From positions 28,464 to 92,463 of IMG/VR virus record IMGVR_UViG_3300047160_019164: a stretch of DNA of 64,000 nt; one strand, 5' to 3'. A program made the translations under genes and the position numbers. Positions 4,701 through 62,019 of the stretch are shown here, in pieces. This DNA is from a virus. How positions within the stretch are numbered: the first letter of the stretch is position 1; the number at the start of each line of letters is the position of its first letter. Under the pieces are notes generated by a model. The model was not told the DNA's origin, made no database searches, and saw only the letters and a program-made list of their open reading frames with translations.

Positions 4701-5561
4701 GAGCGGTTGGAGAAGTTCAAGGCTACAGCCGAGAAACGCAACAAGGAGTGGAACGACGAAGCTGTGCTCGACGCCATCGACACCATCATGGCGGAGTACG
4801 AGCGTGCGGATGGCTACAAGGCGCGCAAGAAGAACGACGGCACACGCGTCGCTCATCCGCCGCACGTGCAGGTCGCTCTCATTCTGAAGGAACGCGGCGA
4901 AGAGGTGCATGCCGGTTCGAAGATCGGCTACGTGGTGGTGGACGGGTCGAAGTCGCCGATGAAGGTGATTCCCGCCAGTGACTTCACCGGCGTGGAGGCA
5001 GATCGCTGGTACCTGTGGGAGAACCTCGTGTGGCCACCGACGGAGCGTCTACTCGTCGCGGCGTTCCCCGACCACGAGTGGAAGTCGTGGGGCAAGGTGC
5101 GGCCCAAGAAGCCGCGATTGCCACGCGGCAAGAAGACGGCGCAGCTCGCATCCCCTGAAGTCAAGCCTCCCACCGCACGGCGCCGTGCGGTGAAGACTCC
5201 TGCGCTCGTTGCTGGCGGCTCCGTGGCGGTGCCGAAGCAAGCACCACCGCCAGCGGCTCCGGCCAAGGCCGAACCGGCTTCTTGGATGCCGCAGGTCGTC
5301 TCCCGCACCGCACGGCGCCGTGCGGTGGACCAGCCACCCCTCGTAGCCCCAAAGGAAGAAGGGACGGGCATGGAGTGGCTCCTACCCGTGGGCCGTGGGA
5401 CGAATCTCGACGAGGTGACGAAGGCGCTCAAGGCAGCACCGGGGCGCACACCCGTGTTCTTGGAAGTGGCGCTCCAAGGTGCACGCCTCCGCGTCGACTT
5501 GCGGATCAAGGTGAAGCCGTCGAAGGAGCTTTGGTCGTTCGTCACTTCATTGCTCGTCTGA
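1719..5561 (+). CDS. polB: Family B DNA polymerase with an intein and a DnaE-CTD-like C-terminal extension
   Basis: Exo motifs DLETD, WNGDRFDF and Y[intein]CEQD; Pol motifs DFARLYPSII, KIAANSFFG, YADTDS, KKRYA. Confidence 0.95.
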   Translation: MNQENYVNAYVDGGEIVLLKRVDGKLVEKRTPAEYVTYYEQSKVPSELVRALKTSENVLSMVQEKQWLRVHWKRPYRKSNKSDWEFDPRRFMAQDESSPFNERGIVSYEADVHPVLRHFVDCGVGIAKPKRCYIDLETDSRVSFARKEEMRILCYTIVDEDGGVVDSACLQEDTDASEAKLLTRMWDLLHKYDQVCAWNGDRFDFPVMFARSQGREVNVDVNRWLWLDHLMVFKRMNVTASESGDEKTSMRLQDVATAVLKEGKDKFDGSKTWQAWARGDGSCRKEACPGCGEKHEHSARECMRRYCLTPDHKVLGEDLRWRPLGECKAGDVILGFEENGPKGYGRQYRRAIVKSVERAIAPLYEVELASGKKFRVTPDHKWLVARVRKDTGCVNQMEWRETVDLLFDGRSIRSGGKRITNAGSSAAIKLFDVWEEDETKEAGWLAGMLDGEGSLSVKKNKGQRSAGGFTIQVGQVLGPTADRLHALIREKSVVEPKVCYEAPRGPISRKSLKKIIVRGAMHEKLKFLGTVRPERLIPKVDFDRLGRVEARNQFDPVVRVTPIPDGEIVMMETSTKTFVADGYPMHNCEQDTKLLAKIEKKTGYLELFFSLCQACGIFPDSPSTNPTHQVDGFMLRLGKERHTHFRTRKFGEEVEAFEGAFVMIPEYKGIVRNVHVGDFARLYPSIIITWNMSPETKVGVYDHSTKLVTRVDGKKESMREEWARAPRTNVVFDTTAQGILPTALLEMIRLRAYWNDRKASLTPGTEEWHDADRRSTAYKIAANSFFGVAGSPFSRYYDKQVGESITQAGVYLLKATIAEGLTFKPPVRTGYADTDSMFADRVTKAEFEAFVKHCNAELYPRITKAHGCKAYDIKFAYEKQFDRLVMTGKKRYAARYAHYKGKLAAKDSKPEIKGLEFKRGDTAKLARQLQEEAIRMLLGNWEEPFTAPTEVVDDYHKLIAKFQREVLEEKLPTELCVISKNITKKLPPSQREVEERLEKFKATAEKRNKEWNDEAVLDAIDTIMAEYERADGYKARKKNDGTRVAHPPHVQVALILKERGEEVHAGSKIGYVVVDGSKSPMKVIPASDFTGVEADRWYLWENLVWPPTERLLVAAFPDHEWKSWGKVRPKKPRLPRGKKTAQLASPEVKPPTARRRAVKTPALVAGGSVAVPKQAPPPAAPAKAEPASWMPQVVSRTARRRAVDQPPLVAPKEEGTGMEWLLPVGRGTNLDEVTKALKAAPGRTPVFLEVALQGARLRVDLRIKVKPSKELWSFVTSLLV
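2637..3479 (+). mobile_element. Intein (281 aa) with a LAGLIDADG-type homing endonuclease motif, inserted in PolB ExoIII
   Basis: Starts CLTPDHKV; block B 'FRVTPDHKWL'; 'WLAGMLDGEGSL'; ends 'FVADGYPMHN' followed by Cys+1. Confidence 0.93.
5171..5192. repeat. Palindrome copy 1 (in polB)
   Basis: CACCGCACGGCGCCGTGCGGTG; encodes TARRRAV. Confidence 0.95.
5306..5327. repeat. Palindrome copy 2 (in polB)
   Basis: Same 22-bp core; encodes TARRRAV. Confidence 0.95.
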
Positions 5562-5588
5562 GCCGCATAACAGCGGCGGAGGTGAAGC

Positions 5589-6212
5589 GTGAAGAAACGC
5601 ACCGATGTGAGCGGCAAGAAGCTCAGCAAGATCGAGGAAGTGAGTAAGGAGCTGAAGGAGGAGTTGAAGCGCGGCGACGAGCACATCGACACGATGGGTG
5701 GGTTCCTGACGCATAAGCGATTCGACTCCCATCCCAAGCTCTCCGACGACCTCGAGCGCATCATCGCCAAGACGTTCAAGATCGACGTCGAGGCCACGCA
5801 CAAGGTTCTCCTCGAGAACCTTGTTATCGCCGGTACCGACCTCGGTGACCGCGGCACCATCACGGTCCACCTGAACCGTGCCGAGGACAATGCTCGACTT
5901 GCCCATCAGCTCTACTGTGTCGCGCGCGCCGACAAGGAAGAGTGGGACGCCCGTCATGAAGTGGTGCGCGGCGCCATGTGGACGCAAGCCACCGTCGCGC
6001 TCCAGCGCGAGAAGGACGCCGGCGAGCGGCGGAAGCAGATCACCGACGCCGACGTGAAGACGAAGTGCGCCGAGCTGTTCCCCGACGAGTGGCAGTACAC
6101 CGAGGCACGCGGCATGCGCGTCAAGCTGATGGTCGAGCACTTCAAGGAGCTGGTCGATTGTTGGCGCAGCCGATGCGCGACGCTCCGGACGCTTCTGGAG
6201 ACGCGTCGATGA
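5589..6212 (+). CDS. Hypothetical helical protein, possibly a UvsY-like recombination mediator
   Basis: GGAGG RBS; coiled helical sequence 'KQITDADVK'; position in the replication/recombination cluster. Confidence 0.45.
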   Translation: MKKRTDVSGKKLSKIEEVSKELKEELKRGDEHIDTMGGFLTHKRFDSHPKLSDDLERIIAKTFKIDVEATHKVLLENLVIAGTDLGDRGTITVHLNRAEDNARLAHQLYCVARADKEEWDARHEVVRGAMWTQATVALQREKDAGERRKQITDADVKTKCAELFPDEWQYTEARGMRVKLMVEHFKELVDCWRSRCATLRTLLETRR

Positions 6213-6862
6213 AGCGCCTTCATTTCGCGGTGAGAAGGGGCGTCGACGGTCGCATCGCCGAACCGGCGCGCGTGGTGGTGGCGGATCCTCCATGGAGCTT
6301 CAACGACAAGCTCCCCGGTGCATCGCGTGGCGCGGAGAAGAACTACAAGGTGCTCGATCTCGAAGGCATCAAGAACTTCAAGCTCCCACTCATCGACGAT
6401 GATGCTGCACTCTTCATGTGGCGTGTGTCCTCGCAGGTTGAGGAAGCGTACGAAGTGGTGCGTGCGTGGGGCTTCGTGCCGAAGACGGAGATTGTCTGGT
6501 GTAAGCTCACGCGGAAGGGTGGAGACGCACCTTCGGCGAAGTTCGCGCTCCAGGCAGCGAACACCGCAGGCGTGCAACCGCAAGACACGAAGCTCCACTT
6601 CGGGATGGGGCGCTATGTGCGTGCCTCACACGAGTCGTGCATCGTGGCGGTGCGTGGGCGTATGGTCGATAAGGTGTTGGACCGTGCCGTGCGCAGCGTG
6701 TTCTACGCACCGACTGGTGAGCACAGCGAGAAGCCCGCGGTGTTCTTCCAACTCGTCGAGCGCCTCTTCGAAGGCCCGTATGTGGAGATGTTCTCGCGTC
6801 ATCACCGAACGGGTTGGACCTGTTACGGGAACGAAGTGGGCAAGCTCGGTAAACGCGTCTAG
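6209..6862 (+). CDS. MT-A70 family N6-adenine DNA methyltransferase
   Basis: ADPPW catalytic motif, LFMW, AWGF, GMGRYVR..HE, HSEKP, EMFSR..GW..YGNE. Confidence 0.9.
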   Translation: MKRLHFAVRRGVDGRIAEPARVVVADPPWSFNDKLPGASRGAEKNYKVLDLEGIKNFKLPLIDDDAALFMWRVSSQVEEAYEVVRAWGFVPKTEIVWCKLTRKGGDAPSAKFALQAANTAGVQPQDTKLHFGMGRYVRASHESCIVAVRGRMVDKVLDRAVRSVFYAPTGEHSEKPAVFFQLVERLFEGPYVEMFSRHHRTGWTCYGNEVGKLGKRV

Positions 6863-6934
6863 GCTGCATAACCTCCCTTGCTCGGAGGGCAACCGAGTAC
6901 CGCCAAACCAAACAACCGTTGAGGTTTTCAATTC

Positions 6935-61052: not shown

Positions 61053-61580
61053 ATGGCTCGACCTCAACACCCGAACGAGAAGCCCACCGACCCAACGCCT
61101 GTCACGGCGTCGAACAACCCGCACGACCCTTCGGGCGTGCAGCAAGCACCGCCGCCCACGGCGACCGTTCCGACCATGGGGCTCAACCCCGTCAATGCGC
61201 TCGGGCTCGTGCGCGGGCGTCCCGTGCAGACGGGCATGACCGGCGGGACGCCCGGCCTTCCGCAACACGCACAGGCCGAAGCGCACGTCGTCGGGCAGCA
61301 AGGCGACGTCGTCGGGTCGGCCGTCGGGTTCCATCCGCAGAGCGAAGCCGCGCAGAAGGTGCCGCCCATCAAGCGCTACCGTGTCACCAACGGCGGGCGC
61401 ATCAGCGTGAAGGGCACGCCGCACGTGCTCCGACCCGGCAAAGAAGTCGACGAGCGCACGTACGACCTCAAGATGCTGCGTCAGCAAGGCATCAAGCTCG
61501 AGGAAATCACCGAAGACGACGATTACGTGCAGCCCGATCCGCTCGTCGACGGCGAGTCGCTGCAAGCTCCCCGCGGTTGA
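61053..61580 (+). CDS. Hypothetical protein (Pro-rich N-terminus)
   Basis: GAAAGG RBS. Confidence 0.6.
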   Translation: MARPQHPNEKPTDPTPVTASNNPHDPSGVQQAPPPTATVPTMGLNPVNALGLVRGRPVQTGMTGGTPGLPQHAQAEAHVVGQQGDVVGSAVGFHPQSEAAQKVPPIKRYRVTNGGRISVKGTPHVLRPGKEVDERTYDLKMLRQQGIKLEEITEDDDYVQPDPLVDGESLQAPRG

Positions 61581-61597
61581 TTCGATAGGAGGCGAAG

Positions 61598-61993
61598 ATG
61601 GCTTTCAGCGACGACGAGAAGGCGCGCATCCGCTACCACCTCGGCTACGCGAACGTCACCTTCGCCTTCACCTTCGTGCTCGGCGTCTACGCCAAGATTC
61701 CTTTCCAAAGCATCGTCGAAGGGGCGATGACGCAAGCGTTGCCGGAGATCGAGTCGCAGGTGCGGCTTCTTTTGCAACGCCTCGATCAGACCGAAGCGCA
61801 GATGTTCGACAATCAGGAGCTTCTCGCCATCGACGGCATCGGCTCCATCCAGATTCGCAAAGACGGACAGCCCAAGACCCGCGATCAGTACGCGTATTGG
61901 GCGGCAGCGCTCGGCAACATCTTCAATGTCGAACCGAATCCCTACGACCAGCGGTTCATGGGGAACGGAATCAACGTCCCGGTTCAGGGATAA
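61598..61993 (+). CDS. Putative head-tail adaptor
   Basis: AGGAGG RBS; 'FSDDEKARIRYHLGY'; position after the capsid gene. Confidence 0.6.
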   Translation: MAFSDDEKARIRYHLGYANVTFAFTFVLGVYAKIPFQSIVEGAMTQALPEIESQVRLLLQRLDQTEAQMFDNQELLAIDGIGSIQIRKDGQPKTRDQYAYWAAALGNIFNVEPNPYDQRFMGNGINVPVQG

Positions 61994-61995
61994 CG

Positions 61996-62019
61996 CCACC
62001 GCACGGCGCCGTGCGGTGG
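61996..62019. repeat. Palindrome copy 18
   Basis: Perfect 24-mer. Confidence 0.95.

Follow-up and report, generated by a model that had tools for sequence, protein, structure and literature searches.

The genome of an uncultivated soil phage is studded with copies of one short palindrome, most of them between genes and some in frame inside genes, and the question is what such an array is for. The stretch analysed, called here the window, comprises 64,000 bp at positions 28464-92463 of the 92,463-bp IMG/VR record IMGVR_UViG_3300047160_019164, which is rated 100% complete; the phage is referred to as G000. With a probability of about one half, the palindromes are operator-like sites of a phage-encoded dimeric DNA-binding protein, which would punctuate a genome whose genes are co-directional.

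According to this reading, the 24-bp palindrome would be a double-stranded site for a sequence-specific homodimer encoded by the phage. Each phage of the family would own a private site sequence that changes in step with its reader, and selection would maintain at least one site per ~3-8 kb. The sites would be accommodated mostly just past stop codons and, where the genes are tightly packed, would be written into tolerant linkers of the encoded proteins. The bound protein would most likely mark the boundaries of transcription units as a roadblock, an insulator or a regulator of a promoter just downstream.

The palindrome array of G000

There are 18 copies of the 18-bp core, CCGCACGGCGCCGTGCGG, in the window and 26 in the whole record, all of them exact matches. 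The expected number is 0, and no occurrence was found across 100 shuffles of the sequence. The full 24 bp, CCACCGCACGGCGCCGTGCGGTGG, are perfect in 14 of the 18 window copies, and 18 of the 26 record copies are perfect over 24 bp or more. Conservation around the palindrome stops at 24 bp. A first-pass annotation of the window had listed 18 copies, and all of them were found as exact core matches, but its positions are 0-3 nt off, the flanking CCA having been counted.

The copies are distributed with a mean density of one palindrome per ~3.5 kb and more evenly than random placement gives. The full-genome copy count and the test of the gaps against a random model, both proposed in the first-pass annotation, bear out the regularity that it had noticed: the coefficient of variation (CV) of the gaps is 0.53 as against 0.94 for random placement (P ~3e-4), and the maximum gap in the whole record is 7873 bp as against 13 kb expected (P 0.017). 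Within the window the largest gap is 5675 bp, in keeping with the limit of ~5.7 kb given there. The spacing is still over-even when compared with a null model in which the sites are restricted to gene junctions (P 0.001). The array is strongly non-random and under selection, and it is a feature of the family to which the phage belongs.

Distribution in the phage family

A search with the major head protein (MCP) yielded 36 related viral contigs at ~48-63% identity. Ten whole relatives, with MCPs ~60% identical, were fetched, and eight of the ten have a loop-less perfect palindrome of their own in 9-24 copies each. These eight palindromes are TGGAACTCGAGTTCCA, GAAATCCAATTGGATCGATCCAATTGGATTTC, ACGGATGATCGATCATCCGT, TGGGAACCCGGGTTCCCA, CCGTCGGTGATCGATCACCGACGG, GACGCCGGATCGATCCGGCGTC, GAGATAACACCGGTGTTATCTC and ACGGAAACACGTGTTTCCGT. 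Most of 14 further relatives, collected through the core gene g21, also carry arrays, for example of CGAAAGTCGACTTTCG, ACGTAAACCGCGGTTTACGT, GAGTCGAGGCCCGGGCCTCGACTC or the spaced dyad CCGCAA-N6-TTGCGG. The 18-mer of the G000 palindrome is present in only two other IMG/VR contigs, in one copy each. No near relatives by DNA were found among isolated phages, and those closest by TerL and MCP are Streptomyces, Ralstonia and Komagataeibacter phages with only 25-33% identity. Searches with single DnaB proteins gave no new relatives.

Even spacing is common to all nine array-bearing whole genomes (CV 0.44-0.63; Fisher P 1e-14) and holds against the junction null model too. The intergenic bias is significant in eight of the nine, the exception being G010, which has nine copies (P 0.06). 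The four nucleotides at the centre of the palindrome are self-complementary in nine of nine whole genomes, with no loop spacer, and the same is true of most arrays of the further relatives, one of which is the spaced dyad. A central CpG was considered as a general rule and abandoned, one new relative having a GC centre.

No dyad array, spaced or unspaced, was found in G007, in G009 or in G014 and G015, which are partial relatives of G007. The other MCP loci of the G007 clade contain no repeated perfect palindrome. The array-less G007 (L206, about 6500-18000) has a repeat of another kind: six copies of a 60-80-nt unit, consisting of ..CCATAAACCGAAACCCGAACCC.., a hairpin and a T-run, form a cluster at 26.5-38 kb, with the genes on the other strand.

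Evolution of the palindromes

The similarity of the palindromes tracks the MCP (capsid) tree. The sisters G001 and G004 have GGAAC..GTTCC sites; the G003 clade, G013 and G010 have the outer sequence ACGGA..TCCGT in common or differ from it by one step; and L137 and L139 both carry GGATCGATCC. Between G003 and G011, which are 96% identical, all eight alignable sites are in place, and none of the 160 palindrome columns differs compared with 85 of 1990 (4.3%) flank columns. At the larger distance between G003 and G013 (~55% protein identity), five of eight sites occupy the same junction or linker in both phages. Every G013 copy reads ATGGATGATCGATCATCCAT where G003 has ACGGATGATCGATCATCCGT, a symmetric outer change from ACGGA..TCCGT to ATGGA..TCCAT. 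The difference between the two phages is a concerted symmetric change at homologous sites.

The palindromes are established as real, invariant, dyad-symmetric, evenly spaced, biased towards intergenic positions, distributed across the family, under purifying conservation and subject to concerted change. A symmetry that includes the centre of the site, over-even spacing in every genome and concerted change while the positions drift argue for a reader acting in trans and for a function that depends on covering the chromosome in full.

Placement of the copies relative to genes

The genes were called with an own codon-usage caller, which is rough, and the coding and intergenic assignments therefore carry some error. 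Twenty of the 26 copies are intergenic (19 if the open reading frame (ORF) at 40253-41056 is real), although only 10.6% of the genome is called non-coding (P 4e-15). Nine copies are situated no more than ~10 nt past the upstream stop codon. The six or seven intragenic copies include those in PolB, SbcC and the primase, the last of which is encoded upstream of the window. The window copies are listed in Table 1. For the window the first-pass annotation had counted seven coding copies, which the new gene calls reduce to five or six: the two in PolB and those in the SbcC-like gene, GT2 and g79 are retained, that in ORF 40253-41056 is doubtful, and the copy at 27841 is lost to a non-coding pattern of codon-position GC. 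The peptide readings TARRRAV and HRTAPCG were confirmed. ORF 40253-41056 encodes 267 amino acids ending in HRTAPCGG, has a third-position GC content of 0.63 as against ~0.8 and was skipped by the gene caller; it may be a recently acquired gene.

Table 1. Palindrome cores and promoter-like motifs in the window (window coordinates)
Feature	Position	Strand	Location and remarks
PolB copy 1	5173..5190		In PolB (1719-5561), ~aa 1152, variable C-terminal tail, read TARRRAV
PolB copy 2	5308..5325		~aa 1197, C-terminal tail; G001, G004 and G005 hold their own palindrome in the same tail
Intergenic copy	8360..8377		Between g36 and the RecA-like gene; perfect palindrome reaches 36 bp; GCGGCATAAC promoter-like motif no more than ~20 nt on
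SbcC-like copy	13634..13651		Gene at 12412-14361, ~aa 408, coiled coil; own palindrome of G008 ~20 alignment columns off
GT2 copy	18592..18609		Glycosyltransferase (18353-19042), ~aa 80, loop preceding the DxD strand, read HRTAPCG
Intergenic copy	22413..22430		Past the gene for thymidylate kinase; perfect palindrome of 42 bp between an A-run and a T-run; terminator-like, -35 kcal/mol
Intergenic copy	23389..23406		Between g58 and g59
Intergenic copy	27841..27858		Between g70 and g71; long ORF 27371-28309 is non-coding here by codon-position GC
g79 copy	31911..31928		Near the 5' end of hypothetical g79 (31862-32182); gene start uncertain
Intergenic copy	33874..33891		11 nt past a stop codon, 6 nt ahead of a tRNA gene (33898-33971)
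Intergenic copy	36846..36863		5 nt past a stop codon; the gene for the large terminase (36904-38619) is downstream
Intergenic copy	39059..39076		9 nt ahead of a tRNA gene (39086-39158)
ORF-end copy	41032..41049		Last codons (HRTAPCGG*) of ORF 40253-41056, of atypical composition; otherwise intergenic
Intergenic copy	42732..42749		Followed by TAGTCT-N7-ATG: -10-like hexamer and possible leaderless start of g96
Intergenic copy	46129..46146		6 nt past a stop codon, upstream of g101
Intergenic copy	51804..51821		7 nt past a stop codon; 18-bp core only, left flank TTG in place of CCA
Intergenic copy	56959..56976		Between g112 and g113, head module
Intergenic copy	61999..62016		6 nt past a stop codon, between g119 and g120
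GCGGCATAAC motif copies	1702, 8398, 20186, 23806, 29889, 34060, 38966, 41146, 44466	coding strand	Three more upstream of the window

The coding copies occupy variable or disordered segments of the proteins. Palindromes are found in the C-terminal tail of PolB in G000, G001, G004 and G005, in the coiled coil of SbcC in G000 and G008, in a linker of g36 in G004 and G005, and in a linker of the sigma-like g30, disordered in the predicted model, in G001, G003, G010 and G013. Alignment with homologues had been suggested, for SbcC, PolB and GT2, as a means of telling an insertion from a recoded stretch. The TARRRAV stretch of the primase aligns without any change in length, and the palindrome-bearing loop of GT2, only ~3 residues longer than in a solved homologue, is mostly recoded. 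The coding copies have therefore mostly been recoded in place, or nearly so, and not inserted.

Two of the palindrome copies are followed by a near-identical intergenic block of ~135 nt, at 22431-22565 of the window and at 24994-25129 of the genome, upstream of the window. The block looks like a duplicated regulatory region.

The link to transcription

A sigma70-family factor, g30, is encoded at genome positions 27978-28643, its 3' end being in the window at 1-180, and is present in all examined family members that include the replication module. Its profile matches FliA in the PDB at 3.6e-5, and the predicted model consists of two helical domains and a linker. The oriented motif GCGGCATAAC is found in 12 copies on the coding strand of G000 and in two poor ones on the other strand. 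Mostly it is followed by ATG 6-10 nt on, and it is probably the -10 element of phage promoters that give leaderless or short-leader mRNAs.

Several of the G000 palindromes have this motif 40-420 nt downstream. The distance is shorter in G005, G006, G002 and G008, where TAGCCT, CCATAGT, GTAACAT and GGACAAACC motifs occur 0-10 nt downstream of many palindromes, mostly with a start codon nearby. In these relatives the palindrome thus appears to cover the -35 region or to lie just upstream of promoters. Such a promoter-adjacent location would fit an operator or insulator at unit boundaries.

Candidate readers

Tyrosine or serine integrases and resolvases were not found in five complete genomes, which makes a lysogeny repressor an unlikely reader. 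Small helix-turn-helix (HTH) proteins encoded beside the primase are candidate readers, as a lead only. In G000 their genes (genome positions 23616-24053 and 24122-24433) come just after that of the primase and before the start of the window, and the Pfam matches of the products are HTH_23 and HTH_8/Fis. The predicted model consists of a four-helix HTH, one long helix and a tail that is basic. Locally it superposes best on the DNA-binding domain of NtrC4, ~1 Å over 43 residues, with non-significant Foldseek E-values (no match at E<=0.001). Every examined member of the family, including the array-less G007 and L246, has at least one Fis/NtrC-type HTH paralogue beside the primase. Two genes were taken up and dropped as array-tracking genes in phyletic profiling: for the type-B HTH a wider sample broke the pattern, and the profile of the sigma-like g30 finds this gene in the array-less G007 as well.

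The core protein g31 (window 192-1337) is a further candidate. It has a conserved four-cysteine zinc ribbon and, by eye, an HTH-like pattern in its centre; the only other support is a weak DUF3102 lead in a protein atlas. In PDB profile searches g31 gave only zinc-ribbon and weak SAP-like matches, and nothing usable was obtained for g21, g34 and g36. PHROGs had no match for g20, g31, g34 and g50. A logic of restriction sites was also considered and rejected, the central hexamers not being avoided elsewhere in the genomes.

The nature of the site

The self-complementary centre argues for a site in duplex DNA, because it is needed by a symmetric dimer but not by an RNA hairpin. The strength of the hairpin is not kept, amounting to -19.3 kcal/mol in G000 and -5.8 kcal/mol in G001. 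The conserved property is concluded to be the two-fold symmetric duplex sequence, a subset of the intergenic copies probably doubling as terminator stems. Several observations nevertheless weigh against operator-like sites. In 15 of 91 intergenic copies, and in none of 48 coding ones, the perfect palindrome continues for at least 3 bp more with locus-specific sequence. Such arm extension is not expected of a pure protein site, but it fits an overlap with terminators. A TANNNT hexamer is found just downstream of only one of the 26 G000 copies, and the coupling to promoters is therefore not general, being loose in G000. The association of the type-B HTH with the array is not clean: besides the array-less G007, three array-bearing genomes lack it where it is usually located. 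Between distant genomes, site positions at tight conserved junctions coincide no more often than chance allows (P 0.04-0.14). Positions being unshared at large distances, it is density and spacing that are kept, not position.

A different, unlikely possibility is that the element functions in RNA or single-stranded DNA by forming a hairpin, that is, as a factor-independent or I-shaped terminator, a stabiliser of mRNA 3' ends, or a signal for processing between cistrons and ahead of tRNAs. Its location suits such a role, 19-20 of the 26 copies being intergenic, nine of them within ~10 nt of the upstream stop and two 6-9 nt ahead of tRNA genes, and the RNA fold of -19.3 kcal/mol improves to -35 to -39 kcal/mol with the arm extensions. 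The extra locus-specific pairing is seen in 16% of the intergenic copies and in none of the coding ones, two copies are flanked by A/T runs, and canonical terminators show no enrichment in the rest of the genome. A self-complementary loop in nine whole genomes is, however, unneeded for a hairpin, the G001 element reaches only -5.8 kcal/mol in a genome of 67% GC, and the sequence is invariant, with no compensatory pair changes. The intrinsic terminator was rejected as the sole nature of the element: the stem is present, but a T-run is found at only 2 of 26 copies, the other 24 have no following U-tract, and six or seven copies are inside genes, among them PolB (twice), SbcC, the primase and GT2. 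A subset of the copies may double as terminators. Cutting of the palindromes, as cruciforms or lagging-strand hairpins, by the phage SbcCD, which would seed recombination-dependent replication at regular intervals, is very improbable. Perfect loop-less palindromes are the natural substrate of SbcCD, genes for SbcC/SbcD and a RecA/UvsX-like protein are present in all members of the family, and regular spacing suits multiple points of initiation; yet the array-less G007 retains the same SbcCD and RecA genes, the 16-bp palindromes of G001 are too short for ready extrusion, and the need for one invariant sequence per genome is left unexplained.

Loading sites similar to parS or OB, from which a phage ParB/KorB-type CTP clamp would slide over a few kb, are an improbable explanation, also in the form in which the clamp is coupled to a ParB_N-TET/JBP-glycosyltransferase cassette that directs hypermodification to the phage DNA. 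In G000 two ParB_N proteins flank a TET/JBP dioxygenase and two glycosyltransferases (window 15678-19695), and there is a C5-cytosine methyltransferase. The site is a palindrome, as parS and OB are, only longer (24 bp), and spacing of the coverage type suits a sliding clamp; by sliding from its OB sites, KorB reaches promoters at distances of up to 1.5 kb (PMC11790492). The co-occurrence fails in both directions: G001, rated 100% complete, has 24 copies and no ParB_N domain, and the array-less G007 and G009 have ParB_N. ParB was accordingly rejected as the universal reader, and the sites were not assigned to the parS/OB class. Moreover, of the relatives G005 alone yielded an orthologue of the TET gene, and G001, G004, G005 and G007 gave no C5-methyltransferase. 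The ParB_N proteins are short and, in the manner of modification modules, often fused to methyltransferases or encoded next to them. There is likewise little probability that the palindrome is a selfish or drive element, copied by gene conversion, homing or a cycle of palindrome-specific cleavage and repair, and spread, like uptake sequences, by molecular drive with no benefit to the phage. The copies are identical, their positions turn over between distant relatives, and coding copies lie at poorly conserved residues as those of uptake sequences do (PMC2817400). Homing-type elements are present in the genome (a ~300-aa PolB insertion with a weak intein match), and fold-back repair could give the arm extensions. 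Against drive stand the strict in-place conservation at 96% identity, the even spacing in nine genomes and a vertical descent with gradual symmetric change. No transposase, RAYT (REP-associated tyrosine transposase) or integrase was found, and neither were target-site duplications or internal sequence; the primase copy has not changed the length of its gene.

The first-pass interpretation of the repeat as a selected DNA-level element is upheld by its two-fold symmetry, the coverage-like spacing, the private palindromes throughout the family, their co-divergence with the capsid tree and the concerted symmetric change. The further reading as a protein-loading site or 'self' mark is conjectural. 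The interpretation needs to be widened, since the link to gene ends, the promoter-like motifs in relatives and the longer intergenic arms favour punctuation of transcription at least equally. Beyond the operator-like sites that are preferred here, it is possible, but only tentatively suggested, that the array exemplifies a general and so far undescribed feature of phages, a private and fast-evolving palindromic 'address code' placed regularly along the entire genome, which a dedicated phage protein would read for a genome-wide task, such as discrimination between phage and host DNA or the loading of machinery for transcription, replication or modification. Site and reader would then co-evolve as a repressor and its operator do.

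Genome context

G000 is a myovirus-like phage with a tail sheath, a baseplate wedge, a large terminase, portal-region proteins and the major head protein. The replication set comprises PolB, a DnaB-like helicase, a Toprim primase, a RecA-like protein, SbcC and SbcD. The endolysin matches the C-terminal part of endolysin families, taken as a cell-wall-binding domain, and the host is therefore probably a bacterium. The GC content is 0.62, and 122 of the 123 called genes are on one strand. The stretch is present in soil metagenome DNA runs only, no RNA run being listed; in four soil runs its depth is mostly 2-5x, and the contigs are short, some of them breaking at repeats.

The hypermodification module at window 15678-19695 consists of genes for ParB_N, the TET/JBP dioxygenase, a 364-aa protein, GT2 and ParB_N in a row, and the C5-cytosine methyltransferase gene (window 28614-29465) is ~9 kb downstream of it. 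PolB (window 1719-5561) is 1280 aa long, compared with 850-930 aa in relatives. Its residues ~281-585 are missing from all relatives and give a weak Intein_splicing match, which makes an intein probable. An MT-A70 family methyltransferase (window 6209-6862) and a UvrD-like helicase (genome 25813-27840, upstream of the window) each have counterparts in only some of the relatives.

Comparison with known systems

Known classes of dispersed repeats were compared with the palindromes. Repetitive extragenic palindromes (REPs) and the mosaic elements built from them (BIMEs) have a GTAG/CGTC head on an imperfect palindrome and are associated with a Y1 (RAYT) transposase (PMC3733652). Membership in this class was rejected: the element of G000 is a perfect palindrome starting with CCACC, and PF01797 has no match in five complete genomes. 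An origin as a host REP was rejected as well, no abundance of the repeat in host genomes having been seen; a scan of host genome contigs gave, among the matches listed, only scattered single copies, in at least 120 contigs from many unrelated phyla, and the true host may be outside the collection. For a MITE (miniature inverted-repeat transposable element), the conserved element is 24 bp in all, the primase has no length change, and eight of eight alignable sites in G003 and G011 are in place. The first-pass annotation had set aside both a MITE and a REP; the lack of a RAYT and of inner sequence in the 24 bp, the primase without an indel and the copies kept in place agree with it. Rfam hammerhead ribozymes have no match at the gathering score in the window and none at E<=1 in window 22600-23600.

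The uptake sequences of Pasteurellaceae and Neisseriaceae are likewise short tags spread over the genome, with coding copies at poorly conserved amino acids and in particular reading frames (PMC2817400). They differ in being 9-12 bp long, asymmetric, present in hundreds to thousands of copies and linked to cellular competence instead of to a phage.

Stoperators of Cluster A phages are many near-identical sites in short intergenic gaps, which are phage-specific, co-evolve with their reader and act as protein roadblocks to elongation (PMC6550527, PMC9283540). They are asymmetric and oriented with transcription, and they are read by the monomeric immunity repressor of temperate phages, whereas the G000 sites are perfect palindromes. 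With this symmetry, and with no tyrosine or serine integrase in five complete genomes, a stoperator of the Cluster A type was rejected. The conserved inverted repeats (CIRs) of phiC31, said to have been described by Ingham and colleagues in Nucleic Acids Research in 1994, are reportedly 17-bp inverted repeat operators, bound by repressor and present as highly conserved intergenic copies throughout the genome. phiC31 is reportedly temperate, the reader of the CIRs being its immunity repressor. To our knowledge, neither even spacing nor coding copies have been reported for them.

The KorB/OB system of plasmid RK2 also has dispersed palindromic operators in a mobile genome of comparable size, and one protein acts from them at a distance (PMC11790492). 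The difference is that KorB is a ParB-family CTPase, and ParB_N does not co-occur with the array in the phage family described here. The OB sites of RK2 reportedly number 12.

The closest published analogue is the 17-bp dyad repeat, 5'-TGTTCGG-N3-CCGAACA, of Cluster O mycobacteriophages, that is, Corndog and its relatives (PMC4351075). It is present in more than 30 invariant copies in a phage that does not look temperate, many of them intergenic and about one third intragenic; its authors predicted a dimeric binder, and its function is unknown (PMC4351075). The array of G000 resembles it as an invariant short dyad in tens of copies, both intergenic and intragenic, in a genome in which no lysogeny genes were found. 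In contrast to the Cluster O repeat, to which they are unrelated in sequence, the palindromes of the G000 family have no central spacer and are perfect over 16-32 bp, and their even spacing is demonstrated statistically. They occur in unrelated, myovirus-like soil phages as the trait of a deep family, with lineage-specific sequences that co-diverge with the phage. In lytic phages, dispersed dyad repeats are known, as from Cluster O, but have never been explained; in the uncultivated soil phages described here they can be traced through a deep family. Identification of the reader would yield natural sets of orthogonal pairs of a protein and its 24-bp site, and would make testable a new level at which phage genomes are organised or regulated.

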